Assembly (NCBI RefSeq): GCF_053078305.1
Contig: NZ_CP166879.1
Strand: one strand, 5' to 3'
DNA: 64,000 nucleotides
A program made the translations under genes and the position numbers. The notes beneath the pieces are model-generated. The model had not been told where the DNA came from. It did no database searches and saw only the letters and a program-made list of their open reading frames with translations. The first letter of the stretch is position 1; every line of letters begins with the position of its first letter. This document shows positions 12,226-64,000 of the stretch, one piece after another.

Positions 12226-12235
12226 GGAGTCATAA

Positions 12236-18817: not shown

Positions 18818-19696
18818 TCAGGCCAGTTTATGATTCGCCATTAATTCCAGCGCCTGCACTAACGCAGAGTGATCCAACTGGCTGCCACCGTTTGCCGCAC
18901 AGGTATTAAATAACTCCTGGCAGGTCGCGGTGTTTGGCAGATTCAGCGCCAGTGTCTTCGCACTTTGCAGTGCCAGGTTGAGATCTTTCTGGTGCAGCGC
19001 AATTTTGAAACCTGGATTAAAGGTGCGTTTAATCATGCGCTCACCGTGAACTTCCAGAATACGTGAGGAAGCAAAGCCGCCCATCAGCGCCTGGCGCACA
19101 CGTACCGGGTCTGCACCGGCTTTTGAAGCAAACAGCAGAGCTTCAGAGACCGCTTCAATATTGAGCGCTACGATAATCTGATTTGCCACTTTGCAGGTTT
19201 GACCGTCGCCGTTACCGCCCACAAGGGTGATATTTTTACCGAGCAGTTCAAACAGCGGTTTAACACGTTCAAATACCGCTTCGTCACCGCCAACCATAAT
19301 TGACAACGTCCCTTCACGCGCGCCGATTTCGCCGCCGGAGACTGGCGCATCGAGATAACCACCGCCCAGTTCATTCACCTGACGAGCGAAACGTTTAGTT
19401 TCAATCGGGGAAATGGAGCTCATATCAACAATGGTTTTGCCCTTCAGCGAGGCTTTGGTACAACCATTTTCACCGAACAGAACTTCTTCAACCTGTGGTG
19501 TATCCGGCACCATAATAAAAATGATGTCCGATGCTTCCGTTACCTGGTGCGCAGTTTCAACACTGACGGCACCCAGTGACAGTAATTCATCAGCAACCGG
19601 ACCAATGGTTGTGACATGCAGTTGATGACCGGCACGCGCCAGATTAATGGCCATCGGTGTACCCATAATGCCTAAGCCAATAAATCCCAGTTTCAT
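18818..19696 (-). CDS. glxR: Tartronate semialdehyde reductase
   Basis: 292 aa with N-terminal NAD-binding GxGxxG (GLGIMG). Confidence 0.95.
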   Translation of the reverse strand: MKLGFIGLGIMGTPMAINLARAGHQLHVTTIGPVADELLSLGAVSVETAHQVTEASDIIFIMVPDTPQVEEVLFGENGCTKASLKGKTIVDMSSISPIETKRFARQVNELGGGYLDAPVSGGEIGAREGTLSIMVGGDEAVFERVKPLFELLGKNITLVGGNGDGQTCKVANQIIVALNIEAVSEALLFASKAGADPVRVRQALMGGFASSRILEVHGERMIKRTFNPGFKIALHQKDLNLALQSAKTLALNLPNTATCQELFNTCAANGGSQLDHSALVQALELMANHKLA

Positions 19697-19795
19697 AATT
19701 AACCTCTTTTAAATTTTGCTTTTCCTGGATTCAGACAACACGATCCCCTGCCAACTTAGCGGCCTAAAAAAGCATTGCCTGAACAGCGTTACGTT

Positions 19796-20572
19796 TTAAC
19801 GGTACGGATCCATCCAGCGTAAACCGGCTTCCGTGGTGGTTTGGGGTTTATATTCACAACCAACCCAACCGTTGTAGTCAGAATTTTCGATTACCTTAAA
19901 GAGATAATCATAATTAATTTCTCCGGTCCCCGGTTCGCCGCGATGCGGATTATCGGCAATTTGCAGGTGACCAATTTTATCAGCCCATTGCGTCATAGTG
20001 TTGGTTAATTCACCTTCCATCCGCTGCATGTGATAAATGTCATACTGAATTTTCAAATTGCAGCAACCAACATCATCAATCAATTTCAGCGCCTGCCGAG
20101 TTCCGGTGAGATGGAAACCAGGAATATCAAAATGGTTAATAGGTTCAATCAGTAATAAAATATCTTCTTTCATCAGCATATTCGCGGCATAACGCAGGTT
20201 TTCTACAAGCGTTGCGTGAATCTGTTCACTGCTGAAACCAGTCGGCGTTTTACCGACCAGACAGTTAATTTTTTTATTACCCAGCGCACGAGCATAACGA
20301 ATCGCTGCTGCTACGCCATCCCGAAACTCTTCTTCACGGCCAGGAATACAGGCAATACCCCGCTCGCCCGCCGCCCAGTCACCTGCCGGTAAATTGTGCA
20401 GCGTATGTTCGAGTTTATTATTCGCCAGCACCCGTTTTAATTCTTCAATGTCGTAGTCATAAGGAAACATAAATTCAACGCCGCGAAAACCACACTGCGC
20501 AGCTTTCTCAAAACGGGCGAGAAAATCATATTCACCAAATAACATCGATAAATTAGCAGAGAAACGTAACAT
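19796..20572 (-). CDS. hyi: Hydroxypyruvate isomerase
   Basis: 258 aa TIM-barrel xylose-isomerase-like protein. Confidence 0.95.
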   Translation of the reverse strand: MLRFSANLSMLFGEYDFLARFEKAAQCGFRGVEFMFPYDYDIEELKRVLANNKLEHTLHNLPAGDWAAGERGIACIPGREEEFRDGVAAAIRYARALGNKKINCLVGKTPTGFSSEQIHATLVENLRYAANMLMKEDILLLIEPINHFDIPGFHLTGTRQALKLIDDVGCCNLKIQYDIYHMQRMEGELTNTMTQWADKIGHLQIADNPHRGEPGTGEINYDYLFKVIENSDYNGWVGCEYKPQTTTEAGLRWMDPYR

Positions 20573-20584
20573 TATTTATCTCCC

Positions 20585-22366
20585 TTATTCATAGTGCATG
20601 AAGCAGGTTTCAGTCGGTGCATCCGCTGCGTTATCGGCGATATCTTCAAATTCCATGACGTTATCCAGTTCGCTGCCCATCGAAATATTGGTCACACGCT
20701 CGAGAATAACTTCCACGACTACCGGTACCCGATATTGCGCCATTAAGGCTTTCGCCTGTTCAAAGGCCGGTGCAATATCTTCCGGTTTGAAGACGCGAAT
20801 CGCTTTACAACCTAAACCTTCCGCTACTTTTACGTGGTCGACGCCGTAACCGTTCACTTCGCTGGAGTTGATATTCTCGAAAGCGAGTTGCACGCAGTAG
20901 TCCATGTCAAAGGCGCGTTGTGACTGACGAATCAGGCCGAGATAGGCGTTATTCACCAGCACATGGATGTACGGAATGTTGAACTGCGCGCCAACAGCTA
21001 ACTCTTCAATCAGGAACTGGAAGTCGAAGTCACCGGAAATCGCCACCACATTGCGTTTCGGATCAGCGGCACAAACCCCCAGCGCCGCCGGAATCGTCCA
21101 GCCTAACGGACCAGCCTGACCACAGTTGATCCAGTGGCGGTCTTTAAAGACATGCAGCATTTGTGCCGCAGCGATTTGTGACAGGCCAATGGTGGTGACA
21201 TAACAAACATCGCGACCAAAGGCTTTGTTCATCTCTTCATACACGCGCTGCGGTTTCACCGGCACGTTGTCGAAGTGGGTTTTGCGCAGCAAAGTGCGTT
21301 TGCGCTGCTGGCAGTCGGCGACCCATTCTTTACGACACGGCAGACGACCCGCTTTTTGCATCTCCTGCGCCACTTCAACCAGCAGTGTCAGCGCCGCTTT
21401 AGCATCAGAGACAATGCCGAGATCCGGACACAGCACGCGACCAATTTGCGTCGGCTCAATATCGATATGAACGATTTTGCGCCCTTCGGTGTATTTCTCT
21501 ACCGAACCGGTATGACGGTTAGCAAAACGGTTACCGATACCAAACACCATGTCGGACGCCAGCAACGTTGCGTTACCGTAACGATGCGCGGTTTGCAGAC
21601 CGACCATCCCGGCCATCAGTTCATGATCGTCCGGGATACAGCCCCAGCCCATCAGCGTTGGGATCACCGGAACGCTGGTCAGTTCAGCAAACTGTTGTAA
21701 CAGTGCAGCTGCGTCAGCATTGATTACCCCGCCCCCGGCAACAATCACCGGACGTTCGGCCTGGATTAACATTTCTACAGCTTTTTCGATCTGCATACGG
21801 CTGGCAGCAGGTTTGTAGACCGGCAGCGGTTCGTACATGTCAGGATCAAACTCGATTTCCGTAACCTGAACGTCGAACGGTAAATCCACCAGTACCGGAC
21901 CCGGACGACCAGAACGCATCAGGTGAAATGCCTGTTGCAGCACGCGAGGCACCAGCGCCGCTTCACGTACTGTAACCGCCATTTTGCTGACCGGTTTAGC
22001 AATTGCTTCAATATCTACGGCCTGAAAATCTTCTTTATGCAGACGGGCGCGCGGAGCCTGGCCGGTAATGCACAGAATAGGAATGGAATCAGCAGAAGCA
22101 GAATAGAGCGCGGTGATCATGTCCGTGCCCGCAGGACCGGAAGTCCCCAGACATACGCCGATATTCCCTGCCGTTGCGCGGGTATAACCTTCCGCCATGT
22201 GCGAAGCACCTTCCACATGACGCGCCAGAATGTGACGAATACCGCCGTGCTTACGCATCGCTGAGTAGAACGGATTGATTGCAGCTCCCGGAACACCGAA
22301 GGCGGTGGTGATACCTTCTTTCTCCAGCACATACATTGCCGCGTCAACGGCTCTCATTTTTGCCAT
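20585..22366 (-). CDS. gcl: Glyoxylate carboligase
   Basis: 593 aa ThDP enzyme from ATG at 22366 ([18 protein letters not shown]...); the 30-codon upstream extension in the track is rejected because it spans the promoter and operator. Confidence 0.95.
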
Positions 22367-26150: not shown

Positions 26151-26265
26151 TGAGGGACGTATTTGTATTAGTCGCGACTTGATCTGACACATGGCCTTGA
26201 AAGGTTGAGAGTTACCGGTTTTGATATGAGTGTCGAATCCTTATCCAAAACAAGAGGTAACTCTC

Positions 26266-26637
26266 ATGCTTCATACTGCCAATCCCGTCATCAAACACAA
26301 AGCCGGTTTGCTCAATCTGGCTGAAGAACTCAGCAACGTATCAAAAGCCTGTAAAATCATGGGCGTTTCGCGTGATACGTTTTATCGTTACCGCGAACTG
26401 GTCGCTGAAGGCGGTGTGGATGCGCAGATTAATCGTAGTCGCCGCGCTCCTAACCTTAAGAACCGTACCGATGAGGCAACTGAACAGGCTGTTGTTGATT
26501 ACGCCGTCGCTTTCCCGACACATGGTCAGCACCGGGCCAGCAACGAACTGCGTAAACAGGGGGTTTTTATCTCCGACAGTGGTGTCCGTTCTGTCTGGTT
26601 ACTCCATAACCTTGAGAATCTCAAAAGACGATACTGA
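26266..26637 (+). mobile_element. Truncated transposase (N-terminal HTH fragment, integrase-core IS type), likely pseudogene
   Basis: 124 aa from ATG at 26266 with SD aagagg; HTH-like segment (MGVSRDTFYRYRELV) but no catalytic DDE domain. Confidence 0.5.
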
Positions 26638-26669
26638 ACAAATTTTATCAGGTGACGTTCCGTAAAAAG

Positions 26670-26786
26670 TTGTATGGAGTTCTCGATGCAGTCGGCGCGA
26701 CTATCAGTACCCCCGCTGAACCCTGGACTATCGGGCCGCCGTACTGGGGCATGTCACCCTGGCGTGCCGCTGGTTTTCCGCTAATG
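26670..26786 (-). pseudogene. Vestigial rhs 5' (PAAR N-terminal) remnant with mutated start codon
   Basis: About 120 bp with clear nucleotide similarity to the 5' end of the main rhs gene (31740-31838); encodes [25 protein letters not shown], with the start ATG changed to ATT, then stops after about 45 codons. Confidence 0.55.
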
Positions 26787-27151
26787 GTTTATTTCCTCTT
26801 TCTTTCCCGGCAAGAATTTATTTTAATCCGGAAGGATTATTTATTTTCAGATAGGGACTCACATTAAACACGTAACATTTTAATTAATGCATGGCTGAAT
26901 ATGTATTACACAATGTCAGATATCGTAAAAGACCAGTGCAATTCTATGTAAACTCTCTGACTGTTCATTTTATTTGTTGTTTCAGGGTCGGAACTCACCC
27001 TCAATAAACAACTGAATACGAGTAGATATTCATCGTCTGAGCTATATGGCTTTACACAATAGTCGACATGTCTTTTCTCAGTCAGGAATTTTACTTTTCC
27101 TCACTACGAAGTTGACGACTTCGATATGGGATAGACTCTTAATTCAAGCAA

Positions 27152-27643
27152 TTACTCTGCACAAGCATCAGGCAATCCAGCTCCAATATTTGTTATAAAA
27201 TAATGCGTAACATTAATTTCACCAACAAAAAAAAGATTTACGCTATCCCCTTGCCCTGGTATTTTACCATATTTACACCACACTTTTTTTGTATCTGGAT
27301 CATTCTTTGATACGATTTTCGCCACTTGTTCCCTGGCCCTCACCGTCAATGTTTTCTTAAACCTCCCCCCATCATCGATTGTTAGGGAAAAATAAGAAAA
27401 AAAATAATCATCTTCTACATTTGTGGATATTGATATATCCACCGCTACGTGCGGAAAAAAATCTGGGAGCCATGTAAAAACTCCATCATTTTCTGGTATT
27501 GCCATATAGTTTATGTAATGCTTACTTACAAGAGATTCATCTTTGTGTAAATAAAGATAAGTAGTCACGCATAAAAAAACAACGATTATAATAGCAAAAA
27601 TAAATATTACCATCTTTGAGATGTTACTTGAGATAGCCAGCAT
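27152..27643 (-). CDS. Putative Rhs immunity protein (membrane-anchored)
   Basis: 163 aa ORF whose ATG overlaps the last codons of rhs; N-terminal TM helix ([22 protein letters not shown]); alternative start at 27613. Confidence 0.6.
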
Positions 27644-30600
27644 CTTGTAAAGCCTTTATCGTTTTTTTATGCTCTGGATTAATATAATCAATACATCTAT
27701 TTGAGCAATCTTGTGTTAATGGACATGTCAACCCATGTTCATTTACAGCCAAGTCTTTTTTATTATCTTCAATCATCTCAGAATGGGATAACTTTACTTT
27801 TCTGCCGTACATACCGAACATATTTAACCCGTAATCTCTAATCTCTTTTTCATAACCCAGCCCTTTCGCCGATCGGCTAACACCAGCGTCATTTAATTTA
27901 GACACTCGACAAAATGCCATACAATGGAAAAATTGATCAGTCCCACCTAAATTTAATCTCTTCATATCATCATAAGTATCAGATAATATATCCCATGCTC
28001 TTTGATGGTTTAGTTGTTCTTTTTTTCGCATTAACGCTACATCTGCAGGACTTAACCCTAATGGATCAATACCATTCACCGGATTCAGCGGATACGCATA
28101 CAGACTCCATCCCCCCGCCAGCCCAATCGGGTCCTGAGTAATATATCGTCCCAGCAACGGATTGTAGTACCGGTTCCGGTTATAATACAGCCCCGACTCC
28201 TCATCATACTGCTGCCCCGGCAGCCGGTACGGCTGGTGCAGGTGATGCGGGTTCTCCTCATTCAGCTGGTTGCCCCATTCATCATACTCCCCGCTCCACG
28301 CCGTATTGCCGTCTTCGCTGATGAGCGCCAGCGGCAGGCCCCGGTGGTCGCAGTGGTAAAGATGAACTTTTCTCGCCGGTGTGTATTCCGGCTCCACCTG
28401 TCTGGCCAGTTGCTCCACCGTCAGCCCGCACTGCGCAAGCCACGCCCGGCTTTCACTGCTCACGCGGTCTGCCCGGATTTCCCCCTCCAGCCTGTCCAGC
28501 AGCCCCACCAGTTCAGCCGGGAACACCACACCGTGGCCGTCTTCGCTCCCTTCCTGCTGCAGCTTCTCCGCCAGGCTGCGGCACTGCGCTTTCTCCCGTT
28601 CACCGTTGTCTGTTTCGATGCGGATGAGCGGCGCGAAGCTCCCCGGCTGGTATACCGTCTGGATACGCGTGGTGTCGGTCTGTACCGTCGTCAGCCGGTC
28701 GCCGTCCCATCCGTACCACGTCACCTCCGGTTTACGCGACAGCGACATCCATCCCGTCAGGTCACGCCCGCGACGCCACACCCGTTTTCCCGTCCGGCGG
28801 CCCAGCGGGTCGTAGAGGTAGCGGCTCTCGACCAGTGGCTCCTCATGCTGTATCCGCGTGTAAAACACCAGCCGGTGCTGGCTGTCGTAGTGGTAGTGGT
28901 GGGTCCGCTCGTCGTCCGTCCGTATCACACCCGTCGGGATGCGGTCCGTCTTCTCCGTCAGCCTGCCGTATTCATCGTAACGGTACAGGTAATGCGCGTC
29001 TTTGGTGATGCGGTTATCCGGCCACGCCGTGAGCGTGCTGTCCGGGTGCAGCTCCGGGTCCGGCAGGCGGTTGCCCGCCGGGTCGGTCGCATACGGGATG
29101 CGGATGTCCAGGTCCGGTGCGAGGGTGCGCACGCTCTCCAGCCTGCCCGTGGCGCTGTAGCCGTATTCCCGCGTCTGCCGGGGGGCGCTGATGCGCACCA
29201 GGTCGCCGTTGTCATTCCACCCGTAGTCACGGTCATATACCAGGCTGTTCAGGTGCTGGCTCTGTAACTGGCCTGCGGGGGTGTATGTGCTGGTCAGTTC
29301 GTATGCGGCATTACTGCCTGCCATGCTGCCGAAGCTGCGCACCGTCTCACGGTGCAGCCTGTCCCGCGTATACTCGACCAGCGGCGTCCCGCCCAGCTTC
29401 ATTCCCGCCAGGTAACCGCTGCCATACGTCAGCCACTCCACCGGCGGCAGGCTGTCCGGCGTGACGCGGTTTGCCAGCCCCTGTTCGTTGTATGCGTGTT
29501 TCGTCTCATGCTGCCACAGCAGTTCCCCCGTCTCCGGGTTCTCCACCGTCTGGCGTTCGCCGGTCAGGCGGCCCTTATCGTCGTAGCCGTAGTGGGCAGC
29601 GACACGGTGGCCTTCACTGAGATGGCTGATGTCTGTCAGCCAGCCGTGGCCGTCATACTGCCACTGCTCTGCCGGTTCACCGTTTACCGTGCGGTGAGTG
29701 ATACGGTCCGATTCATCGTAGTACCAGAGGATGACAAGTCCCTCATCCTCACTCTGTGTGAGTTTTCCGGTCAGGTCATAATGATAACGTTGCGTCCGCC
29801 CGTCAAAGCCGCCCTGCTGTACCAGCCGGTCCAGCGCATCGTAACTGAAGACGCTGTGGCTGCCGTTCTCGTTGGTCAGGCTGATGACACGTCCGGCAGC
29901 ATCGTACTCCATACTGCGCGTCAGCCCGCCCTGCGTGGTGCTGACCGCCTTTCCCCACGCATCGTACTGTGTCTCGCTCCGGTTGCCGTCCGGGGTGATA
30001 ACGGCAGTCAGGTCGCCTGCGGCGTTGTATTCATACCGCGTTTCACGGCCCTGTGCGTCTTTCACCGAGGTTAACCGGCCACGGTTGTCATAGCGGCGGT
30101 AAAGGCTGATGCCTTCCTCGCGGTGGACCGCCGTCATCTGGCCGAAGCGGTCGTATTCATAACGGGTCTGGTAGCCCGAGCAGTCGGTGAACGCCAGCAA
30201 CTGACCGTAGCGGCTCCACGTCATCTGCCGGGTGCTGCCCGTCGCATCTGTTGTTGTGGCCGGTAATTCACTGTGCGCATCATCATAGCGGTAGCGTACT
30301 GTCTCCCCGCTGCGCGATGTCTCCGTTACCAGCCTGTCCAGTTCATCATATGCCCGGCGGCTCTCCAGCCCGTCCGGGGACACCACCGCCGTCAGCTGGT
30401 TCCCGTCGTTATAGTAAAATTTCGTCTCCCGCCCGTCCGGTGTGGTGATGTCCGTGATGTCGCCTGACACCACATTCAGACCGTACTCTGTCCGCCGTCC
30501 CGCCGCGTCCGTCTGCGCCGTGAGCCTTCCTGCCGCGTCATACCCGCTGTGCGTGATGCTGCCGTCCGCCTGTTCCTTCATCACCACCCGTTTCAGCCCG

Positions 30601-31838
30601 GCCTCGCCTTCTGTATGCAGCACCTCACGCCGGTTCAGGCTGTCTGTGACGGTGATGCGGTCCTGCTCATACTGGTAGCAGTAACTCAGGCCTGCCGGGT
30701 TTAGTTGCTCCACCACCCGCCCCGCATCGTCGTAGCGGTAGCGCATCTCCGGCCTTCCCGCGTAACGGTGCGCCACCATCCGCCCGGGGTGCTGCGCGTC
30801 ATATGTGAAAGCGCGCACCTGCGTATTGCTGCGGTCATATACCGCCAGCAGTTCACCGGCCTCCGTATACGTGTACCGCGCCAGTGGCGCACCGGGCAGA
30901 TTCTCCGGGTATGCCGGGTCGTGCATCAGCCACACCGCCGAAAGGCGGATACCCCTGTCGGGGCCGTATTCGGTACCGGGCAGTGTGTCGGGGAACGCTG
31001 AGTCTGAAAGAGGGCGGGGGGTGTCAGGGGAAGATAAGGAAGCGGTGTGCTGTTTACGGGCCTCTTCCGCCCGCTGCGCCTGCGTGGTCAGCACCAGACG
31101 GAACTCCCGCCCGGCACCGTCCGTCACGCCGGTGATGTCCCCGGCCAGGTCGCCTGCGGCCTCACGCCGGTACACCAGCGTCCGCCCGAAGCGGTCCGCC
31201 ATCCCGGTAAGCACCCGGTACGGCGGCAGCGGCGCTGGCAGTACGTCCTCAGCACCCGGCACCCGCTCAGACCACCCCAGTATCCACCACGGCCCCTGTG
31301 CGCTGTTGGTCGCCAGGTAAAGATGCGGGCTTAACCGGATATCCGGCGGCAGCGACGCCCACAGCCGTGCCAGCGTATGGCCGTCCGGCTGTGCTGCCTT
31401 ACCACCGCGCACCAGCCACAGGGACTCGCTGCGGCTGTACACCGCCTCACCCGGCAGCAGCGGCTCAAAGTGAATGCTCCGTCCGCCGTCGTTGTCGTTG
31501 AGTACCAGTGCATCATCGCGTAGCTGTAAGCGGATATCAGAAGGCGCTTTCCAGCCGGGGCCAAAAATCCCCACCGGTGCAGGCGTCTTCGTCCGGTAGC
31601 TGCTGTAGGTGCGGGAGAGAATGAACGGCAGCGGGCCGGGCAGCGCAAGGTCCGTCTCGCCGGGCAGCACCTTCGCCCCCAGCAGCGGATTTACCGGGTT
31701 GCCCGAAGTCATCCCGCCCGGACACACCGAGCACGACACGCCAGTTGGCGCGCCAATTCTTACACCTGCCGAACCCTGGACAATGGGACCGCCATACTGA
31801 GTCATATCTCCCTGACGCGCCGCTGGTTTTCCGCTCAT
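27624..31838 (-). CDS. rhsD: Rhs-family polymorphic toxin (PAAR N-terminus, YD-repeat shell, C-terminal toxin)
   Basis: 1404 aa with PAAR-like N-terminus ([25 protein letters not shown]), many YD/RHS repeats, and DPxGL boundary ([10 protein letters not shown]) before a roughly 150 aa C-terminal tip. Gene symbol is by synteny only; the tip may differ from K-12. Confidence 0.92.
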
Positions 31839-32267
31839 ATAAAGTGCCCTTTTAGTTATTGTTCATATCCCTGTGTTAGCAACAAAAAAAAATAAAATGA
31901 CACACAAGACCAACTAATGTATTTATATATTTTTCACATAAACTTATTTGTTCTCAATCAACAACAACTGTTATTACAGGTCACTTTCAATATTTTATTA
32001 AACTAAAATTTTTAGCACAGATGAATTCATCATCAACAAATTCACTATATGGATAATATCCATTCAACGCATATGATTTATGATTTTATTAGTCTGAGTT
32101 ATTTTTGTAGGGCTATATTTAAATTATTAAACTCCACCGATTCAGATTAATATCAGCAATAGAAAGATAGGAAATCACCAATTCAATAACATCATCAATG
32201 AAACATATTGTAGAATTAATTTAAACAAGGCGTTCCATTCAACCAGAACGCCCCTTATTTACTCTCA

Positions 32268-44507: not shown

Positions 44508-45679
44508 CGTTCGCGCAACGCCTCCTGTGCTTTGTTAAAGGGTTTCAACAGATAATCCAGCACGCTTTTTTTGCCGGTGCGGATATCGACCGTCGCCACC
44601 ATACCGGGGAATATCGGAAACTGCTGTTTGCTTTTGTTTTCCAGATGGTTGCTGAAAGTGCGAATGTACACCCGATAGTAATAAACATCGCGCCGCACTT
44701 CATCCTGCACGGTGTCTGGTGATATCACCGCTACTTCTCCCGGCAGACCGCCGTAGATGGAGTAATCGTAGGCAGTTATTTTCACCAGCGATTTTTGCCC
44801 CGGATGGATAAACGCCACATCGCGCGGGGAGATTTTTGCCTCAATCAGCAGTTGCTCATCCAGCGGCACGATGGTCATCAGTTTACCACCGGGGGCGATG
44901 ACGCCGCCAACCGTGGTGACGTCAATATCCTGAACAATGCCACGAACTGGCGCAGTAAAGTTGAGCCTGGTGAGGGAGTCTTCACGCCCACGGATCACCG
45001 AACGCTGGGTTTCCACTTCCGCATTGGCTTTCGCTAACTCTTCCCGCGCCTGAACGTAGTATTGCGTGCGCACGTCGCTGAGTTTGTTTTCCAGTTCATT
45101 GGCCTGGCGTTGCAGGCGCAGCACTTCGACGCTGCTCGCCGCCCCCTGTTTCACCAGCGGCTGGGTCATCGCCAGTTCACGGTTGACCAGGCTAATCCCC
45201 TGCGTCAGCCCGGTGGTGGCTTTGTTCAACCCGTCGCGGCGAGTGTTGTACAACGCCGTTTCCGACTCGATAAGTTCGGGGAATTTATTCAGTTCGTCAG
45301 GGAAGACCAACGGTTTATTGCTCACTTCCGCCCGCAGCCGCGCCGAGGTTGCCAGCGCAGCGTACAGCCGCGACATCGCTTCCTGGACGTCGGATTCCGT
45401 TTTAGTGCGGTTAAGCTGCGCCAGCGGCTGGCCCTGTTCGACAATATCGCCAACTTTCACGTTCAGATGATACAGAATTCCGCCTTCCAGCGACTGCACC
45501 ACCTGTTCGCGCCCGGAAGGTTCTACCGTGCCGCTGCCGGTGGTGACTTCATCAAGCTGGAAGTACCACGCCCAGCCGAGAAAACAGAGCAGCATCACAG
45601 CGGTAACGCGTACCGCCAGCGCCGAACGCGGCAAGCGGGGTTCAGTCAGGCCACGGTTGTATTGCAGTTGTCCGTTCAT
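44504..45679 (-). CDS. Type I secretion periplasmic adaptor (HlyD family membrane fusion protein)
   Basis: 391 aa: cytoplasmic N-terminus, one TM helix ([14 protein letters not shown]), long coiled-coil and lipoyl/beta-barrel regions; ATGA-coupled to the upstream ABC gene. Confidence 0.88.
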
Positions 45680-47838
45680 GCAGCAGACCCCTTATTCTTC
45701 TCCTGCAACACCACCCGTCGCGCCGTGGGTTCGCTCTGTTCACGCAAAATGGCCTCTTTCGCGCCATCCATCACAATCCGCCCCTGATCCATCACGATTA
45801 TCCTGTCCACCAGCTGCAGCATCGCCGTGCGGTGAGTGGCGATGACCAGCGTGCGATGTCCAATCCACTGTTTCAGATGTTCGATTAAATGCGCTTCTGC
45901 CATTTCGTCCAGCGAGGCGCTGGGTTCGTCGAGCAGCACGATATTGGGTTGAGAGATGAGTAGCCGCGCCAGCAACAGCGTTTGTCGCTGACCGCCAGAG
46001 AGGCCAAATCCTCCTTCCTGAATCATGTAGTTGAGACCGTTTTTCTGCTTCTGCACAAAGGGCAGCGCCCCGCTGAGGGTTAACGCGCGTTCGATATCTT
46101 CATCGCTGGCCTCCGGCATCCCCATGGTGAGGTTTTCCCGCAGCGAACCAAAGAACAGTCGCCCGGTCTGGCTGAGTAGCCCCATGTCTCGCCGCAGATC
46201 TGCCGGATCAAGCTGCCCGATACTGATGTTATCCAGCAACACCTGCCCCTGCTGGGCGATACGCATTCCAGCGAGCATTTGCAGTAGCGTCGATTTACCC
46301 GCGCCGTTGCGCCCGAGAATGGCGATTTTCTCACCAGCCTGAATGTTGAGTTTGCCAATCGCTACATCGGCAATCTTCTCTTCTTCGTCGTAATAAAACA
46401 CCGCGTTGCTGAACTGATAATTACCGTGCAGCACCGCTTTATGCACCAGTTTGCCGTGTTCCGGCTGATCCACCGGGCGCTTCATCAGTTCATCCAGGCC
46501 GTTACGCGCCACCTTTGCCTGCTGCCAGCGCGAGAGCACGCCGGATATCTGCGACAGCGGCGCGATGGTGCGCGAAGCCAGGATCGTCGTCCCGACCAGC
46601 GCGCCGGTGGTCATGTCGCCGTTCATCACCATAAAGCAGCCCACCAACAGCACCACGACGTAGACGATGGATTGCACTTCCTGGGTCCAGGTGAGCAGTA
46701 GCCCGGTGAGAAAACGTTGCTTCATGCTGATGGACGAGGCCACATCGTTGGTGTGATTCCACTGATTCTGGAAACGCTGTTCGGCGCGCAGCAGTTTAAT
46801 ATCTTCAATCGACTGCACGGCTTCGACAAGCGTAGCGTTACGTACCGCCGACTCGCGCATCCCTTCGTTCGCCAGCCGCGCCAGCGGGCGTTGTACCAGC
46901 AGGCCGGGGATCACCAGCAACGGCAGCGCCAGTAAAACCACCAGCACCAGCCAGCCGCCAATCATCCACAAAATAAAGACAAACAGCAGGAAGAACGGCA
47001 GATCCGCCACCGCGCCGATGGTGGTGGACGTAATAAGCTCCCGCACTGATTCCAGTTCGCGGATCTGCGAGATAAACGATCCGGTGGATTTCGATCGCAC
47101 GTTGTTTTTCAGCCGTAGCGCATGACCAAAAACGCGATCCGAAATACGCAGGTCTGCCCGCTTGCCGATCACATCAGATAGATGCGTACGCACCATGCGC
47201 ATACAGAACTCAAACAGGATCGCCATCATCACCCCGGCGAACAGCACCCACAGAGTCGGGTACGATTGCGCCGGAACCACCCGATCGTAAACCTGCATCG
47301 AGAAAATCATCGCCGCCAGCGCCAGCACGTTCGCCACCAGTGACGCCAGCATAATATCGCCGTAGCGCCGCCAGTCTTTTAGCGAAAGACTCCAGAACCA
47401 GTTCGCCTGATACGGGCGAATATAGTCATCTACCCGCGCGTCAGGGATGGCGCTGAGCGGGCGCAGTAGCGCCAGTTCAACGATTTTATCCTCGACATCC
47501 GCGACGTTAAGCGTGGTTTCCAGCCCTTCGTCACCGCTGAACTGAACGCTGATATTGTCATGATTGTCGCGACGGGTGATCACGCCAATCTGCTGATTAT
47601 CAAACACCGCGATCAGCGGCAGACGCCAGGGGTTAAGCGAATCGGCGGAAAACTCCACCAGCCGTAACCCCATTCCCAACTGCCGCGCCATGTCGGTGAG
47701 CAACTCTTCCCGCTTACTGTCGCGCTCCCAGTTGACGGTCGCGCGCACATTCTCCTGAGAAAAATCGAGCCGATAATAGCGCGCCACGGCGATCATCGCC
47801 TCCAGCCAGGCTTCCACGGACTGGGCATTTTTTTTCAT
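45676..47838 (-). CDS. Type I secretion ABC exporter (HlyB type, N-terminal C39-like domain, TMD and NBD)
   Basis: 720 aa: N-terminal roughly 130 aa C39-like domain with no candidate catalytic Cys, six-helix TMD, Walker A (GRNGAGKST), signature (LSGGQRQ), Walker B (LLDEPSASLD); ATG 3 nt after the adhesin stop. Confidence 0.9.
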   Translation of the reverse strand: MKKNAQSVEAWLEAMIAVARYYRLDFSQENVRATVNWERDSKREELLTDMARQLGMGLRLVEFSADSLNPWRLPLIAVFDNQQIGVITRRDNHDNISVQFSGDEGLETTLNVADVEDKIVELALLRPLSAIPDARVDDYIRPYQANWFWSLSLKDWRRYGDIMLASLVANVLALAAMIFSMQVYDRVVPAQSYPTLWVLFAGVMMAILFEFCMRMVRTHLSDVIGKRADLRISDRVFGHALRLKNNVRSKSTGSFISQIRELESVRELITSTTIGAVADLPFFLLFVFILWMIGGWLVLVVLLALPLLVIPGLLVQRPLARLANEGMRESAVRNATLVEAVQSIEDIKLLRAEQRFQNQWNHTNDVASSISMKQRFLTGLLLTWTQEVQSIVYVVVLLVGCFMVMNGDMTTGALVGTTILASRTIAPLSQISGVLSRWQQAKVARNGLDELMKRPVDQPEHGKLVHKAVLHGNYQFSNAVFYYDEEEKIADVAIGKLNIQAGEKIAILGRNGAGKSTLLQMLAGMRIAQQGQVLLDNISIGQLDPADLRRDMGLLSQTGRLFFGSLRENLTMGMPEASDEDIERALTLSGALPFVQKQKNGLNYMIQEGGFGLSGGQRQTLLLARLLISQPNIVLLDEPSASLDEMAEAHLIEHLKQWIGHRTLVIATHRTAMLQLVDRIIVMDQGRIVMDGAKEAILREQSEPTARRVVLQEKNKGSAA

Positions 47839-47841
47839 TAT

Positions 47842-50800
47842 CTACACCACCATCAACTGATGATTCGCCAGCAAAGTGGCGAGGTCGGTGTGCACGCCCG
47901 TCAGCGTGACCACGTTAGTTGTCGCAAAAGTGCCGCCCGTGCCGTCGCGGTCGATCTGCACGATGGTGTCGCTGCCGCTCTGGGTGACTTTGACAAAGTC
48001 ACCGATGTTTCCGGCCTGCGCATCCAGCGTCGCCACGCCGTTGACATAGCTGGCTTTGCCGTTTCCGGTGTAGCCGCTGCCCTGCAACAACTCGCGGATA
48101 TCAATGCGATCGGTGTCGGCAGTGCCTTCCCAGGTGCCTACCGTAAAGCCATTCACCACATCCGAACCGTTGCCGCCAGTGGCGTCGCTGGCGTTGAGCA
48201 GTTTATAGAGCAAGGTGTCGTGGCCGCCGTTGCCGATGTTGAGCGTGTCGTTGCCGCCGCGCCCTTCCAGTTGGTTATCGCCGCTGCTGCCGGTCAGAGT
48301 GTCGTTAAAATTCGAGCCGGAAATACCTTCGATATTGGTAAATGTCGAGGTGTTAAAGCCGGTGGCCTGCGCGGCAGTGCTGCTTAAGTTCGCGGTCACG
48401 CCCACCGTCGAAAGCCGGAAATCAACCACGTCCATCCCGCCGTTCGCCAGCCACGTTCCGGTGCCGGAGCTGTACACCCAGCCGCCGGAACCGTCGTAAG
48501 TGTCGGTGCCTGCGGTGGCAAAGAAGGTGTCGTTATAGCCCGTACCAACGAACTTGCCGTTGTTGCTCGCGGTGCCCGCTTCAGCGCTGAGATCGTAAGC
48601 GTGAGTGGCATCGGTAGCCTGCAAACCACCCCAGCTGGTGTTGACCGTCTGGTCGATATTGCTGGCGGTGGTGCCGGTGGATTTGATCAGCACCGCGTTG
48701 TAGGTTTCTCCGGCATTCAGCCCGTAGAAGTTGACCAGCGCCGAGGTGTCGTTAACCCCCATACCCGACTGCGGGTTGATGATTTGCGTGGCGACCAGCA
48801 CTCCCGCCGAGTTGTACAGCTTCACGGTATTGCCGTAATAGACGTTAATGCCGTTGGGATCGGTGATGCGCAGGTGTAGCGAAGTGCCGTAGCTCACCGT
48901 GTTGGTGTTGCGGATCAGGAACACGCTGCCCGACTGTTTGGTCACCAGTACATCAACCGCGCCGTCCCAGTCGTAATCCATTGCCGCCACGCCGCTGGTG
49001 GTACCGCTCTGGCTGCCGCCGAGGGCCGATTGCGTCCAGTTGCTGGCACCACCAACGTTGGTGTAAAGATACGATTGTCCGGTCTGGGCGATACGGGCGA
49101 TATCCATCAGGCCGTCATGGTTCCAGTCCACCGCCAGGCTAAACTGGCTGGCGTAGGTGGTTGCCGTTGCGCCCACCGCCACCGGGCTACCCAGTACGCC
49201 GTTGGTGTTGAATAACAGCGAGCCGTAGTTAGCTCTTCCCTGGCTGGCGGGCAGGAAGAGATCCATATCGCCGTCACCATCGAAATCGGCCCAGGTCATG
49301 GAAACGCTGCTGCTCATAGCGCCACTGCCCGCCCCGCTCAAGAAGGTATTGGTGGTGTTCTGCCCCCAGACAAACGTCCCATTCCCCTGGTTGATGAGCG
49401 AAGATAGCGTGTAATAGTTGTTCAGGTTGTAGGTGTGCTGAACCAGGTCGATCCTGCCGTCATTGTTCAGATCGACGCCAGAACCTTCGTTGAGCGAAAG
49501 ATACCCCGTCACCGCCCCGCCCACCGTGGCGCTACCGCCGCTGTTCGACGTGGTGGAGTTACCTACCAGCGTACCTGCGTTGTTCCACAGGAAGGTGTTG
49601 GAGTCCGGCCCGCCCGCGTCGCCAATCCAGAAGTCGAGATAGCCGTCGCCCTCTTTATCAAATGCCACAATCGAGCCGTACCACGTCAGGGTGCCGACGG
49701 TGACCTGAATAGCGCTGGAAAAGGTGCCGTCGCCGTTATTGGTAAAGCCGTTGATATAGCCTGTACCGTAGTCATCACGGGTGATAAACAGATCGCCCGT
49801 GCCGTTACGGTCGTAATCGGCGATGGAGCTGGTGGCGTAGTTGTTGCCGCTCTGATACAGCGTCAGCGCGGTCTTCGACCAGGTGAGTGGGTCAGTCGAT
49901 TGCATTACCTGCTGGTTTGCCAGCACCGTCCACATCCCGTGCGAGTCGAGGCCGTAGGTCAGCCCCCAGGCGGTGGTTTTGCTGGCGGTAGTCCAGGTCG
50001 GTGTGTAATCAATCGCCGCGTTAACCGTCACCGTGCCGTTGCTAATATTGGCGTTATTGCCGTTACCCGCCGAACTTTTTACCTGCGCAGTAACGGTATA
50101 GGCGGTCGCGGAAACTGTCAGCGCATCGGTATCCGGCAACTGTACATACCAGGTGTTGTGCGCCGGATCGACCACTACCGCGCCGCCCGGTTCAGAGGTG
50201 TAGGTTTTGCCGTTGATCACCACTTCAACATACTGCCCACTGGCAAGCGCGGCGGTGATCACCCCGCTGATAATCGGCGTAGTATCGCGCGTGGTCTGGC
50301 TGGTGATTTGCGCCAGCGTGGTCGGAATAGAGGTATCGACCGTCAGGACAAAATCACTGGAGGAGGTGATATTCCCCGCCAAATCCACCACTCGCGCGCT
50401 GTAGGTATAGGCACCGCTCACCAGCCCGCTGTCGCTGTAGGTCCAGTTCAGAGCGCCGACCATCGTCACCGCCCCTAACAGCAGCCCGTTACGGTAGAGG
50501 TAAACCACTTCACCGCTGGCAAGCGGCGCGGAAAGTACACCGTTCAGCAGCGGCGTAGTGTCGTCGGTGGCCTGCGAACTGCTTAATGTCCCCTGCCGCT
50601 GCCCGACATCATCGGTATACGACACAATGGTTGGCGTGGCGGTAGGGTTAATCGTATCGACCACCACCGTTTTCGATACCACCGGGCCGGTGTTCCCCGC
50701 CAGATCCAGCACCCGCACCTGATAAACGTAGCTGCCGTCGGTCAGCGTGCGGCTATCGGTGTAAGTCCACTGCGTGCCGTTGGTGGTAAGCGTGATCCAG

Positions 50801-53800
50801 GTCGCGCCGCTATCAAGGCTAATCTGCGCCACTTCGCCGCTGGCAAGCCCCGCTCCCAGCGAACCGGTCAGCGTGAGCGTGGTATCGCTGGTGATAAAGT
50901 CAGTTGCCGAACTCCCCGTGTCGGTGCTAATGCTGGCGATGGTCAACACCTGCGCCGGGTTAACGGTGTCAATCTGCGCCGACTGGCTGCCGGTTGCGCC
51001 AACGTTGCCCGCCAGATCGACCACCCGCACCTGCCAGGTGGTGGTGCCGTTGGTGAGGGTTCGTCCGTCAACGTAACTCCAGTTCAGGCCGTCTGCTGCT
51101 AGCGTCACGTTCACCCAGGTTGCGCCGTTGTCGGTACTGATTTGTGCGAACTCATTAGCGCCGAGCGCCGCGCCCAACACGCCGCGCACGGTAAGCGTGG
51201 TGTCGCTGGTAATAAAATCGCTGCTGCTGGTTCCGGTGTCATCGCTGATGCCGGTAATGGTGATACTTTTCGCCGCTTCCGGGCTGGTGGTATCGACCAC
51301 CACGTTTTGCGTTGCGGTCTGCCCAACGTTCCCCGCCAGATCCACCACCCGCACCGTGTAGTTCCAGGTGCCGTCAGTCAGTGTGCGACCATCGGCATAG
51401 CTCCAGCTGGTGCCGATAACGGTTAACGTAGTCCAGGTGACGCCGCCGTCGAGGCTGATTTGCGCCCGTTCATCGGCGGCAAGCGCCGCGCCGAGCGTGC
51501 CGCGCACGGTCAGCGTGGTGTCGCGTGTAACAAAATCGCTGCTGCTTAACCCGGTGTCATCGCTGATGCTCGCAATGGCGATGGTTTTGCTCGCCAGCGG
51601 CGCGGTGGTATCCACAGTGACTATCTGGCTGGCGGTCGCGCCGATATTTCCGGCGGTGTCGATCACCCGCACCTGGTAGTTGTAGTTGCCATCGGTCAGC
51701 GTACGCCCGTCAAGATAGCTCCAGGTCAAACCGCTTACCGAAAGATTCTGCCAGGTGGTGCCGCCATCAATGCTGATTTGCGCGAACTCACCGGCAGAAA
51801 GCGTCGCCCCCAGCGTGCCGCTCACCGCAAGCGTCGTGTCGCTGGTGACAAAATCGTTAGTGATCAAGCCCGTATCGGTGGTGATCGCGCTGATGGCGAT
51901 GGTTTTCACCGCGGGATCTGGCGCGGTAGTGTCGATCACCACATTCTGGCTGTCGGTCGCGCCAACGTTGCCCGCTGCGTCAATCACCCGCACCTGATAG
52001 AGATAGTTGCCATCGGTCAGCGTGCGGCTGTCGTTATAGCGCCAGGTCGTGCCGGTAACGGTAAGCGTGGTCCAGGTTGTGCCGCCGTCGATACTTATTT
52101 GCGCCGTCTCGTTACTGGCAAGCGCGGCGGTGAGCGAGCCGTTGACCACTACCGGACTGACGCTGGTGATAAAGTCGCTGGCGCTAAGGCCAGTGTCGGC
52201 TTGCAGGGAATCGATATTAATGCCCATCGCCGGAGCGCTGAGATCGACGGTAATGGTGTGATTACTGCTACCGGTGTTGCCAATGGCATTGCTCACCGAG
52301 GCGTTAATCACGTAAGCATTGCCGTCCGCCAGCGCGGTAACATCGGCGCTGCCTAGGGTGTAGCTCCAGCTACCGCCGGTCTGTACCGTGGTGGTGTAGG
52401 TTTTGCCGTTTAAGGTCAGGGTCAGCGTCTGTCCGACCGGCGCGGTGGTGGTGCCGCTGATCACCAGCGACGAGCCGTGTTCTGCTGCATTCACCACATC
52501 ATCGCCCGCAAAGGTGTTGATGGTGACGGTGGGCACGTCGCCGTTCAGCGTCACGCCACGGCTGGCGCTGCCGGGGTTTCCGGCCTGATCGCTAACCGTC
52601 GCGCTAATGGTGTAGCTGCCGTCGCTTAATCCAGCAAACTGCTGCGCCGGAATAAACACCGACCAGCTTCCGCCGCTGCCGACCGTTGTGGTCCAGGTTT
52701 GCCCGTTAAAGGTAACGGTCACCGTCTGGCCCACTTCGGCGGTGGTGGTGCCGCTGATGGTCTGCCCGGCAAGCTGCTCGGCGTTGTTGATAATATCGTC
52801 ACCCGCCACCGTGGCGATGGTGACCGTTGGCGCAACGGTATCGACGGTCAGGGCGTGCGTGGTTTGACCGGGGTTACCGGCACGATCGTTCACGCTGGCG
52901 GTAATGGTCTGCGCACCCTGCCCGAGCGATGCCAGATCCGCCGCAGGCACGTTAAGCGCCCAGGTGCCATTGGCGGCAACCGTGGCGGTATAGGTTTTGC
53001 CGCCAAAGATCACGGTGACCGTCTGCCCTACTTCCGCGCTGGTCGAGCCGTTAAGGGTTAACGGCTGCTGCTGTTCGGCGGCGTTGAGTCGGTCGTCCGT
53101 CGAAACGGTGTTAATACTGATAACCGGCGCGGTGAGATCCACCGTCACGCTGCGTGAGGCCGTGGCGCTGTTTCCGGCACTGTCCTGAGCGGAGGCGCTA
53201 ACCGTGTAGCTGGTGCCATCCGCCAGTGCCGCGACGTCTGCCGCCGGCACATTCACGCTCCAGCTCCCGTTGCTCTGAATGGCAGCGCTGTAGCCTTTGC
53301 CGTTAAGCAACACGGTCACCACTGTACCTGTCGCGAAATTAGTGCCAGTGCCGCTCAGGGTCAGCGCACTGCCCGCTTCGGCGGCGTTAATAATATTATC
53401 GCCGCTGATGGTGCTGACCGAGAGCGACACCGCCGCCGTATTGACCTGCACGTTGTGCGTCTGCGTGCTGCTGTTGCCTGCGCTATCGGTGATGGTGGCG
53501 CTGATGGTCACCGTGCCGTCTGCAAGGCCGGAAATCACGCTGGCAGGCACGCCAACGCTCCAGTTGCCGCTGGCATCGGTGCTGGTGACATACTGCTGCC
53601 CGGCGATGGTCACCACCAGGCGGTCGCCTGCGACCGCGCCCGTGGCGGTGCCGCTGATAATCTGCGCCTGAGTGTGTTCGACGTTGTTAATCACATCATC
53701 GCCCGCCACGGTGTTAAAGCTGATCACCGGCGCGGTGGTATCGACGGTCACACCTTTGCTGGCGCTGCCAGGGTTACCCGCCAGATCGCTGACCGTAGCG

Positions 53801-56800
53801 GTCAGGGTGTAGCCGTTATTGGCCAGTGCGGTTAAGTCGCTGGCGGGCAGCGTTAAGCTCCAACTGCCGTCTGCCTGCACCGTGGTCTGGTAGTTAGTGC
53901 CGTTAAGCGTGACGGTGAGCGTCTGCCCGGTTTGCGCCGTGCTGGTGCCGGACACCGTTACGCCCGCCGCCGCTTCGCTGGCGTTGATGATGTTATCGCT
54001 GGCAATGGTGTTGATGGTGACCGTTGGCGCGGCGCTATCGACGCTGTATTCGTGCGTTGCCGTGGCGCTGTTGCCGTTGACGTTAGTCACCCGCACCTGG
54101 GCGCTGGCATCGCCGTCACGCAGCGCCGCCAAATCCGCAGCCGGAACGGTGGTGCTCCAGCTACCGTTAGCCGCCACCGTGGAGGTGTAGGTTTTGCCGC
54201 CAAAGGTGACGGTGACGGTTTGCCCCGCTTCGACGCCGGACGTGCTGCCGGAGAGCATTAGCGCCGCGCCTTTTTCGGCGGCGTTAATCACATCATCAGG
54301 GGTAATAGCGTTAATGCTGATGGCAACGGTAGTGAGATCAACAGTCAGCGGATGGGTAATGCTGGTTTGCGTTCCGGCACTGTTCGCGCCGCTAACGGTA
54401 ATATTCAGCGTTCCCGCAGGCCAGTTACTGACATCCGCCGCCGGAACGCCGACGCTCCAGCTGCCGTTCGCCAGCACCGTGGCGGCGTAAGTTTGGTTGT
54501 TAATCACCACCGTCAACGCCGTGCCTGCGGCAAAGCCGGAGCTGCTGCCGGTGATCACCTGCGCCTGAGCGTGTTCGATGATATTGACCACATCATCACC
54601 CGCGACGGTATCCACCCGCAGGCCAGGCAGACTGGCATCGATGGTGATATCGCGCGTGCCGCTACCGGTGTTGCCAACGGCGTTGGTCACCGAGGCATTA
54701 ACCGTTAACTCACCGTTACCCAGCGCCTGCCAGTCGGCGGCAGGTACGCTCACATTCCAGCTTAAATCAGCCTGGACGGTGGCGGTGTAAGTTTTACCGC
54801 CCAGTTCAACGGTGACGGTGCTGCCCGCCGCCGCCCCGGTGACCTGGCCGCTGATAGTTTGCGCGCTGCCTGCCTCTGAAGCGTTGATAATATCGTCCGT
54901 CGCCACCGGATTAATGGTGATGCCCGGCAGCGCGGTATTAACCTGCACGTTATGGCTGGCGGTGCTGCTGTTACCCTGAGCATTGGTGACGCTCGCCGTC
55001 ACGCTGTAGGTCGCTTCGCCCAGCGCACTGACTGCCGAGGCGGGCACAGTAACGCTCCAGTTGCCGGAGGCGTCGGTAGTGGCGCTGTAGTTTTGTCCGT
55101 TCAGCGTGACGGTGATCGCCGTACCCGCAGGCTGATCGCTGGTGCCAGAAAGCGCCAGATCAGATCCTTTTTCCGTCGCGTTGATCACATCATCGCCCGC
55201 GATGGTGTTGATGCTAATCACTGGCGCGCTGAGGCTGACGGTCACGGTGCGGCTGGCGTCGTCGCTGTTGCCTGCCCGATCGCTGACGCTGGCGGTGATG
55301 GTCTGTGCGCCGCTACCCAGCGCCGCAACATCCGCCGCCGGTACGCCGACGCTCCAGTTACCGGAGGCATCCAGCGTGGTGGTGTAGGTTTTGCCATTGA
55401 GCACAACGCTCACCACATCGCCCGCTTCCCCGCCCGTGCTGGTACCGGAGATCACCAGCGCCTGGGCGTGTTCGGCGTCGTTGATGATGTCATCGCCCGC
55501 CACGGTGTTAATGGTGAGAACCGGCGCGGTGGTATCTACCGCCAGATTGTGGCTGGCGCTGCCGGGGTTGCCCGCTTTGTCGTTGACCGTGGCGCTGACG
55601 GTGTAATTGCTTGCGGTCAGCGCGCCTAAGGCTGAAGTGGGAACGCTGACGCTCCAGCTACCGTCCGCCTGCACAGTGCCGGTGTAGGTTGCGCCGTTAA
55701 GGGTGACGGTCACCGTCTGCCCGGTTTCGGCGGTGCTGGTGCCGCTGATGGTGAGCGGGCTTCCTGCCTCTGCGGCGTTAAGGATGTCATCGCTGGCGAT
55801 GGTGTTAATGGTGAGCGTCGGCGCGCTGGCGTCAACGCTATACGCATGGGTCGCCGAGGCGCTGTTGCCGCTCGCGCTGCTGACGCTGGCCTGCACGTTC
55901 GCCGCGCCGTCTGGCAGAGCTGCCAGATCCGCCGCCGGAACCGTTACGCTCCAGCTTCCGTTGGCGGCGACGATTGCGGTGTAGGTTTTGCCGCCAAAAG
56001 TGACGGTGACGGTTTGCCCGCTTTCAATCCCGCTGGTGCTGCCGGAGAGGGTCAGGCCAGTGCCTTTTTCGGCAGCGTTAATTACGTCGTCGCTGGCAAC
56101 GGTGTTGATGCTGATTGCCACCGCCGTTAAATCGACGGTGAACGGATGGCTGACGCTGACCGGGTTTCCGGCGCTGCTCTGTCCTGCCACGTCAACGGTT
56201 AACGCCCCCGCAGGCCAGGCGCTGACGTTTGCCGCCGGAATGCCGACGCTCCAGCTCCCGTCCGCCTGTACCGTGGCGGAATACGCCACACTGTTGATGG
56301 TAACCGTCAGCACAGCACCTGCATTCAGGCCGCTACTGCCGCCGGTGATCACCTGCGCCTGTCCGTGTTCAATGCTGTTGACGATATCATCGCCCGCTAC
56401 CGTATCCACCCGCAGCCCCGGCAGGTTGGCATCAATGGTGATATCCCGCGTGCCGCTGCCCGTATTGCCATTAGCGTTGGTGACCGAGGCGGTAATGGTC
56501 AAATCACCATTGCCCAACGCCTGGAGATCGGCTGCCGGAACGCTGATACTCCAGCTTAAATCGGGCTGAACCTCCGCTGTGTAAGTGTTCCCGCCCAGCG
56601 TCACGGTGACCGTATCGCCAGCGGCGGCGCGAGTCACCACCCCGCTGATGGTTTGATCGGCCCCCGCTTCGGCGGCGTTGATAATATCGTCGCCTGCCAC
56701 GGTGTTGATGGTGACGTCCGGCAGGCCGCTGTCGACCAGTAAATTCGCCTGGCTGCTGGCGGTGTTGCCTGCTGCACTGGTGGCGCTGGCGCTGACCGTA

Positions 56801-64000: not shown

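Follow-up and report, generated by a model that had tools for sequence, protein, structure and literature searches.

A six-type cycle of Ig-like domains in the extender rod of the giant adhesin SiiEA of Escherichia coli, and its conservation in other Enterobacterales

The window analysed here is a stretch of 64,000 nucleotides of an Escherichia coli chromosome (contig NZ_CP166879.1, assembly GCF_053078305.1), which ends inside siiEA, a gene for a giant adhesin located on the minus strand from 47842 to beyond 64000. Most of the visible part of the gene encodes immunoglobulin (Ig)-like modules. From the sequence alone these had been described as an adhesin array, starting at about 52250, of near-identical 1.8 kb super-repeats of six domains, recently amplified at the DNA level, and the locus as prone to length variation and to misassembly. 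The locus thus raises the question whether a six-domain order exists, how old its copies are, and what has kept the order in place. The region is the extender rod of SiiEA, a giant type I-secreted RTX/BapA-type adhesin of O-island 28 (OI-28); gene, product family and role are already known (RefSeq NF047714; PMC12758282). Only the 3' part is in the window. The single open reading frame (47842..63981, minus strand) is open past the window end, and its GTG start is merely the first start codon inside the edge. The window gene aligns with nt 4621-20778 of siiEA in strain PS10-3 (NZ_CP096837; 20778 nt) at 99.3% identity and one constant offset, and about 1540 N-terminal residues (about 4620 nt of the 5' end) therefore lie outside. 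The full-length relative has 52 canonical Ig-like domains of about 100 aa, 39 of which are in the window (aa 23-3913 of the window protein, 52243-63915); as canonical modules end at 52243, the array boundary proposed earlier is correct.

Self-comparison of the gene by blastn reveals long diagonals at lags of 1794, 1797, 3591, 5388, 7185 and 8979 bp, which span nt 1-10544 of the gene (window 53438-63981), and autocorrelation peaks are found at the same lags. The 1.8 kb diagonal expected of a six-domain block is hence present. The period of 1794-1797 bp results from six types of Ca2+-stabilised Ig-like domain, each of about 100 aa, that follow each other in a fixed order. In the identity matrix of the window modules, same-type modules, located six positions apart, are 55-90% identical, other pairs mostly 35-55%. 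Domains 7-48 of the full-length gene of the closest complete relative make up seven such blocks, here called hexads, and the nearest neighbour is in phase for all 42 array domains. Mean identity in this gene is 0.62-0.66 at lags 6, 12, 18 and 24 versus 0.43-0.46 at all other lags; adjacent domains are about 44% identical, same-type domains 66%. The mean at lag 6 is 0.657 against 0.471±0.013 after shuffling of the domain order, and none of 10000 shuffles reaches 0.657. The recurrence of six module types in one order, suspected from the letters alone, is in this way confirmed. A sub-period of three domains was also considered, and discarded, since identity at lag 3 is only about 0.01 over background. 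Descriptions of a six-type cycle in SiiEA or its relatives were not found in the open-access literature searched, a negative of little weight. With the hexad and its conservation a known system is refined; no new kind of system is defined.

The copies are not near-identical. Whole units compared in pairs are 66-78% identical in DNA and 64-80% in protein, the self-blastn diagonals are 73-77% identical, and exact repeats in the gene reach 41 bp at most. The sequence-only reading had been guided by antisense open reading frames repeating almost verbatim every 1776-1815 bp. The six plus-strand coordinates given for them are indeed start codons of homologous frames, in register with each other; the 600 nt that follow are, however, 69-82% identical in pairwise comparisons, and only the first 15 codons or so look alike. 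These frames seem to be left open by the GC content of the gene, which is 60-63%. Between the seven units, synonymous divergence (dS, Nei-Gojobori) is 0.82-1.23, close to saturation, and the ratio of nonsynonymous to synonymous divergence (dN/dS) is 0.17-0.27. Values of dS near 1 are at about the level found between E. coli and Salmonella orthologues. By these values the units are old copies, and purifying selection acts on each domain. The supposed amplification of a six-domain block did take place, though not recently.

Homologues in other species have been searched by alignment of the non-repeated C-terminal region to one genome per species, and 80 loci were collected. A protein search with the C-terminal 730 aa returned fragments of 1275 aa at most, and genome loci were used for the architecture. 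A lag-6 identity peak is present in the 22 loci with sufficient upstream sequence and discernible domains, and so is a lag-12 peak where domains sufficed, apart from one Enterobacteriaceae isolate (B14) and two short loci. Represented among the 22 are nine genus-level groups, Escherichia sp., Pseudocitrobacter, Cedecea, Enterobacter, Lelliottia, Pluralibacter, Rahnella, Rosenbergiella and Erwinia. Between genera, identity is 0.55-0.66 at offsets that are multiples of six, versus 0.41-0.45 otherwise. In Pluralibacter gergoviae (L019) the cycle, counted from the C-terminal end, is out of step with that of E. coli by three domains. The types match in register across genera, and therefore predate these lineages.

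Positional orthology of single domains is found only with Pseudocitrobacter, where identity is 0.90 at offset 0 and 0.66-0.67 at offsets ±6. In the remaining genera all in-phase offsets are equivalent, and same-type identity within a genome (0.59-0.84) equals or exceeds the between-genus value. Copies of 90-100% identity occur in other genera. This pattern suggests that, beyond Pseudocitrobacter, arrays were amplified anew or homogenised within lineages by the six-domain block, as far as can be judged from the domain comparisons. Some same-type domains of Enterobacter, Lelliottia, Rahnella and Erwinia loci (L015, L025, L028, L037 and L045; first 8 kb) are 96-100% identical, and exact repeats of 90-182 bp are found in these loci at lags of 1794-1797 or about 3588 bp; super-repeat duplication or conversion has therefore been recent in those genera. 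Draft contigs carrying five of the loci (L017, L018, L024, L026, L036) break off inside the array; several drafts stop upstream of the C-terminal region at a distance of 4-6.5 kb, near where the array begins, and the concern about assembly that had been raised for the window does apply to these relatives. Taken at sequence level, the six-domain block is a recurring unit of amplification or homogenisation across the family, the last event in E. coli being old.

The survey of length alleles within E. coli covers 60 of the 959 carrier genomes, chosen as a spread sample. A span of 21.6 kb, equal to within ±14 bp, is common to about half of them. Genes of 20778, 18975, 18978, 20160, 17006 and 21670 nt have been observed, with offsets in whole steps of about 300 nt. 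Compared with the 20778-nt form, L003 and L008 have six domains less, and L004, L006 and L007 have three domains more in the N-terminal, non-periodic part. L007 also has nine domains less, with the phase shifted by three, and is an intact gene of 6325 aa. L005, from O157:H7, lacks one array domain and one C-terminal domain, and L006 about 12 domains, in addition to smaller changes. Junctions of the one-domain and nine-domain differences are located, on either side, at the same point within the domain (86→17, and 13-28), and span conserved motifs common to all domain types, such as AGCGCGGGCAACAGCG and GGCGATGACATTAT; they cover the SAGNS...H terminus of a domain together with the GDD(I/V)IN linker. 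As the two mapped junctions lie in short motifs common to all types, length alleles would arise via in-register exchange, and not from near-identity of super-repeats. The six-domain junction of L003 and L008 could not be placed exactly, because the flanking alignments overlap for 7 kb at 87-89% identity. The predicted length variation is thus observed, in the form of whole-domain alleles (−1, +3, −6, −9, −12), but it does not depend on near-identical super-repeats.

Alleles of equal length may differ markedly in the array. L001 and L002 are 98-100% identical in the flanks and at both termini of the gene, and 90-95% identical in the array, which is a mosaic, with a 99.7% block next to a 91.7% block. 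Array dS is 0.18, versus 0.02-0.04 in the termini, and array dN/dS is 0.12. The latter value argues for deep or imported allelic lineages under purifying selection, and diversifying selection as the cause of array divergence was rejected on the same ground. Over 17 kb, an identity to the window of 99% or more is reached in only two of the 959 carriers. When L001 was divided into 120-nt chunks, for four of 345 the better match in L002 was at a paralogous and not at the orthologous position; three of these fall within nt 4501-4800, and in two of the four the difference is one base, or identity favours the orthologue. Pervasive ongoing gene conversion between E. coli hexads was accordingly discarded, the signal being weak at best. 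The segment at nt 4621-4800 of the L001 gene is 90% identical to the next hexad of L002 and 83-86% to its positional counterpart, and a stretch of up to about 300 nt (nt 4501-4800) is a possible conversion tract.

The assembly of the window itself appears sound. Of the 15 complete genomes among the matches listed, 14 preserve the span of the 17001-bp stretch 47000-64000 to 5 bp, and 13 to 1 bp; the genomes are 95.6-99.2% identical to it. Collapse in short-read assemblies, feared on the assumption of near-identical copies, is not expected here, because no exact repeat exceeds 41 bp and the length is that of about ten independent complete genomes, with which the window is collinear. The suggestion that the true copy number may differ is not upheld either: the gene is collinear with that of a complete genome at 99.3%, with a single offset throughout, and the copy number shown is probably correct. 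The window locus can be trusted as assembled.

The anatomy, divergence, cross-genus conservation, alleles and junctions described above are probably best explained by an old hexad duplication unit in the SiiEA rod, whose copies are by now diverged and stable. The ancestral gene would already have held six domain types, because these are recognisable in register in homologues of many Enterobacterales genera. Arrays would then have grown, or have been homogenised, by the 1.8 kb block. Unequal homologous exchange, if this was the mechanism, would pair best between same-type domains, and such pairing would make the six-type order self-perpetuating without selection. In the Escherichia/Pseudocitrobacter lineage the copies would since have diverged to about 75% DNA identity; the window array would now be stable, and residual length change in E. 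coli would reflect rare in-register exchange at short shared motifs. With exchange sites in the domain end and the Ca2+-linker region, whole domains would be lost or gained, in either direction, and reach altered. According to the established model of RTX adhesins, the unfolded chain would be exported C-terminus first via a channel formed by ATP-binding cassette (ABC), HlyD and TolC-family proteins, and would fold outside the cell upon binding Ca2+. The extender run would then be a stiff rod holding the distal binding region off the cell, and domain number would set the length of the rod, and hence its reach.

Several points weigh against this explanation. The self-perpetuating exchange is what we infer, and no recombination event was directly observed. 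The junction of the six-domain difference is unplaced, L003 and L008 being 11-13% diverged from the reference, and two variant alleles are annotated as frameshifted pseudogenes, which may include assembly or sequencing errors. Between two E. coli alleles no more than a single short tract suggestive of conversion was seen. The allele census is a sample rather than a full count, and coverage of the other genera extends to the 10 kb upstream of the C-terminal region, a part of the full arrays. The excess of within-genome over between-genus similarity also fits gene conversion, independent amplification or horizontal transfer of alleles.

Other explanations fare less well. That near-identical 1.8 kb blocks have been recently amplified, leaving an unstable locus with a possibly wrong copy number, is very improbable for the window, whose units are diverged to the extent reported above (66-78% identity, dS 0.82-1.23), share no exact repeat longer than 41 bp, and extend over 17 kb as in independent complete genomes; the 21.6 kb span common to about half of the sampled carriers argues in the same direction. 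The 1.8 kb diagonal does agree with such amplification, as do E. coli alleles differing by exactly one (−1803 nt) or two (about −3588 nt) super-repeats, the 96-100% identical copies and 83-182 bp exact repeats of Enterobacter, Lelliottia, Rahnella and Erwinia, and the draft contigs interrupted 4-6.5 kb upstream of the C-terminal region. The period could also be produced by chance or by composition, the coding region being GC-rich and of low complexity, with 60-63% GC in the gene and abundant T, A, G, V, D and N codons. This notion can practically be dismissed, given the outcome of the 10000 shuffles, the 42 in-phase neighbours out of 42, and the finding of the same period in independent genera.

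A more serious competitor, yet still an unlikely one, is that the six-type order is itself selected, either as a geometric period of the Ca2+-stiffened rod (for example a superhelical turn, or a spacing of faces) or as a spacing against misfolding, like domains being kept about 600 aa apart while the chain emerges from the T1SS (type I secretion system) and folds. Adjacent domains of multidomain proteins tend to be less than 40% identical, which limits co-aggregation, and titin has conserved super-repeats. In agreement with selection, types and order are the same in three Enterobacterales families despite lineage-specific arrays, neighbours are only about 44% identical whereas same-type domains are 66% identical, and every domain is under purifying selection, with dN/dS about 0.2. 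Block duplication, however, keeps the order by itself. The hexad order is moreover broken in some genes: the nine-domain deletion of L007 shifts the phase by three in an intact allele of 6325 aa, and Pluralibacter is shifted by three relative to E. coli. The O157:H7 allele, which lacks one array domain, still supports adherence, according to PMC12758282, and the rod of MpIBP works with about 120 identical domains (PMC4083281), so that diversity of neighbours is no general requirement. If true, a selected hexad would be a bacterial counterpart of the titin super-repeats, kept while arrays were repeatedly rebuilt. The old, diverged duplication unit remains the explanation that we prefer.

Hexads and remaining domains are arranged in the window as follows, all on the minus strand. 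Hexad U2 (62419..64000) is truncated by the window end, and includes five complete domains and the tail of a sixth, corresponding to domains 13-18 of L002. It is followed by U3, six Ca_tandemer domains in 1794 bp (60625..62418), U4, 1800 bp (58825..60624), which is the most diverged unit, with 66-72% nucleotide identity to the others, U5, 1794 bp (57031..58824), U6, 1797 bp (55234..57030), and the last unit U7, 1794 bp (53440..55233), in which the final two domains are degenerate, being about 65% identical to their own type. Four canonical extenders (domains 49-52, 52243..53439) are off the six-type cycle, their best matches being 52-65% identical and inconsistent in phase. The extender domains match the MpAFP RII tetra-tandemer (PDB 4P99, E 1.2e-57), with the acidic DDxxNxxE linker motif aligned, and the extender of a Marinobacter RTX adhesin (PDB 5IRB, E 1.5e-40); by these matches they are homologous to the Ca2+-dependent Ig-like domain of MpIBP region II.

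The coding sequence of SiiEA (BapA-related giant RTX adhesin, rtxA28/rtxB28 of OI-28) is partial in the window, with 16.1 kb of its 3' part at 47842..64000 on the minus strand. Its C-terminal part begins with divergent Ig-like domains (49882..52242), which have a period of about 318-321 bp, match Big_13, and are weakly similar to the BIg domains of SiiE (PDB 2YN3, E 9e-8). The longest period accepted by Tandem Repeats Finder is 500 bp, and the program gave only the 318-bp C-terminal array; it is useless for the 1.8 kb period because of this limit and because the copies are too diverged. By blastn the lag of the divergent domains is 321 bp. A separate, weaker tandem array with a 318-321 bp period, three copies and 72% matches is located at 51164-52105, downstream of the hexads. 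The divergent domains are followed by FG-GAP/VCBS-like repeats (48943..49818; three Pfam FG-GAP_3 matches), which are conserved in homologues and are a putative distal ligand-binding module, by RTX nonapeptide Ca2+-binding repeats (48214..48552; PF00353, i-E 1.8e-4, and matches to the RTX region of CyaA), and by a type I secretion C-terminal target domain (47854..48162; TIGR03661, 38.1 bits versus a cut-off of 17.6). Downstream of the adhesin gene, and on the same strand, are cueR and, before it, the genes for a T1SS ABC permease/ATPase of the LssB type, hlyB28 (45676..47838; TIGR03375, 838 bits versus a cut-off of 693), and for a T1SS HlyD-family periplasmic adaptor, hlyD28 (44504..45679; TIGR01843, 328 bits versus a cut-off of 209).

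The assignment to an adhesin, already made from the letters, is substantiated by family matches. The N-terminus of the complete relative L002, which is 99.3% identical to the window, matches NF047714 (adhesin_SiiEA) with 511.6 bits versus a cut-off of 425, and includes a BapA prefix-like domain (NF033677, 69.9 bits versus a cut-off of 35), located outside the window. Two 1000-aa segments of the window protein match Ca_tandemer NF033510 with 518 and 892 bits. The TolC-family gene, beyond the window end, has been identified in relatives (TIGR01844, 416 bits). Through its cueR part, the stretch 44100-48900 has matches in 5424 of 5426 complete E. coli genomes; in 957 of the complete genomes the match extends over at least 80% of its length, and there cueR, an HlyD-family adaptor, a type I secretion permease/ATPase and "siiEA: BapA-related adhesin SiiEA" are annotated. 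The gene is carried by about 18% of complete E. coli genomes, measures 20778 nt (6925 aa) and has the TolC-family gene upstream. Gene order at this site in relatives is cueR side, HlyD, ABC, adhesin, TolC-family gene, ybaT. Around the operon in five complete genomes, the annotation shows nothing between ybaT and cueR other than the TolC-family gene, siiEA, and the ABC and HlyD genes; lapG and lapD are not adjacent to the operon in these five neighbourhoods, the remaining genome not having been checked.

OI-28 of enterohaemorrhagic E. coli O157:H7 comprises z0608, z0609/z0615, z0634 and z0635, and in a 2025 study it is reported to be required for early epithelial adherence and mouse colonisation, and to be activated by RstA and extracellular Ca2+ (PMC12758282). 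Surface display and host-cell adhesion are reported for the O157:H7 allele (PMC12758282), and are predicted from sequence for that of the window. RtxA28/RtxB28 (z0609/z0615, with tolC28, hlyB28 and hlyD28) corresponds to the same gene, at the same chromosomal site and with the same domain families, and the window allele is alignable with it throughout. The O157 allele differs in having 20160 nt, without one array domain and one C-terminal divergent domain, and in carrying an internal stop, for which it is annotated as two open reading frames or as a pseudogene; RefSeq lists L005 (O157:H7 NCCP 13894, 12544-32703) as a pseudogene with an internal stop. In the available text of the study z0609 and z0615 are treated as two separate RTX proteins; export of an N-terminal fragment lacking the C-terminal secretion signal is not addressed in that text, nor was a six-type cycle found there by term search (PMC12758282).

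The MpIBP/MpAFP region II (4P99) and the Marinobacter extender (5IRB) share with SiiEA the Ca2+-dependent Ig-like domain, the linker motif, the RTX plan and export by T1SS. In Marinomonas primoryensis MpIBP features about 120 identical copies, with a one-domain period (PMC4083281). SiiEA features in contrast six alternating types, with neighbours about 44%, and same-type domains 55-90%, identical. A survey of RTX adhesins, in the part available, describes similar interior extenders, serial pairs of dissimilar extenders and "more complex patterns", as well as short-read misassembly (bioRxiv 10.1101/2025.09.30.679566). E. coli SiiEA is not among the seven species named there. Extenders are grouped in that text at 80% identity, and most SiiEA same-type pairs are below 80%, so that a six-type cycle of this age would appear as "all dissimilar" (10.1101/2025.09.30.679566).

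Salmonella BapA shares the BapA prefix-like N-terminus with SiiEA (NF033677), and BapA and SiiE are, as SiiEA, T1SS giant adhesins made of Ig-like repeats. BIg domains 50-52 of SiiE resemble weakly the C-terminal divergent domains of SiiEA (2YN3, E 9e-8). No Salmonella locus was among the returns of the scan with the C-terminal region. In spite of the name, siiEA is not the orthologue of siiE of Salmonella pathogenicity island 4, because its operon is without siiA and siiB. The super-repeats of the titin A-band offer an analogy, drawn from general knowledge, in which Ig-like blocks have similarly a fixed order, and domains at the same position are more alike than neighbours; titin is an unrelated protein of another kingdom. 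The period of titin matches a partner filament, and we know of no such filament for SiiEA.

Other features of the window differ among strains. PS10-3 and 24A16CRGN010 have an additional 1224-nt hypothetical gene immediately before cueR (window 44093-44099 versus L090 42781-44099), which is absent from the window, PapM-32-1 and O157:H7; AF57 has an IS4 at this position. A stretch of 6.1 kb between mnmH and ybbP (26153-32261) is missing in PS10-3, and encodes an RHS element core protein of 1404 aa (27624-31838, minus strand; NF041261, 2734 bits). The GC content of 61-62% at 28-32 kb, followed by 41% at 26-28 kb, is due to this stretch. A 600-aa open reading frame is found at 41586-43388 (plus strand), where a YadA-like autotransporter adhesin of 338-349 aa is annotated in relatives. 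No NCBIfam match is found for it at 1e-10, and its coiled-coil matches (Rad50/SMC) are all weak; either the length of the frame is strain-dependent, or the mechanically assigned TTG start is placed too far upstream.

The window locus thus belongs to a named and experimentally studied colonisation factor, OI-28/SiiEA. Because of its whole-domain length alleles and the strongly raised divergence between alleles in the rod, siiEA might serve as a marker for typing; the same features call for caution in gene-presence screens and pseudogene calls. Colouring of extenders at 80% identity would miss the six-type cycle. The association of a shared cycle with lineage-specific arrays makes SiiEA and its homologues a clean example of the persistence of a higher-order repeat in bacterial fibrillar adhesins.

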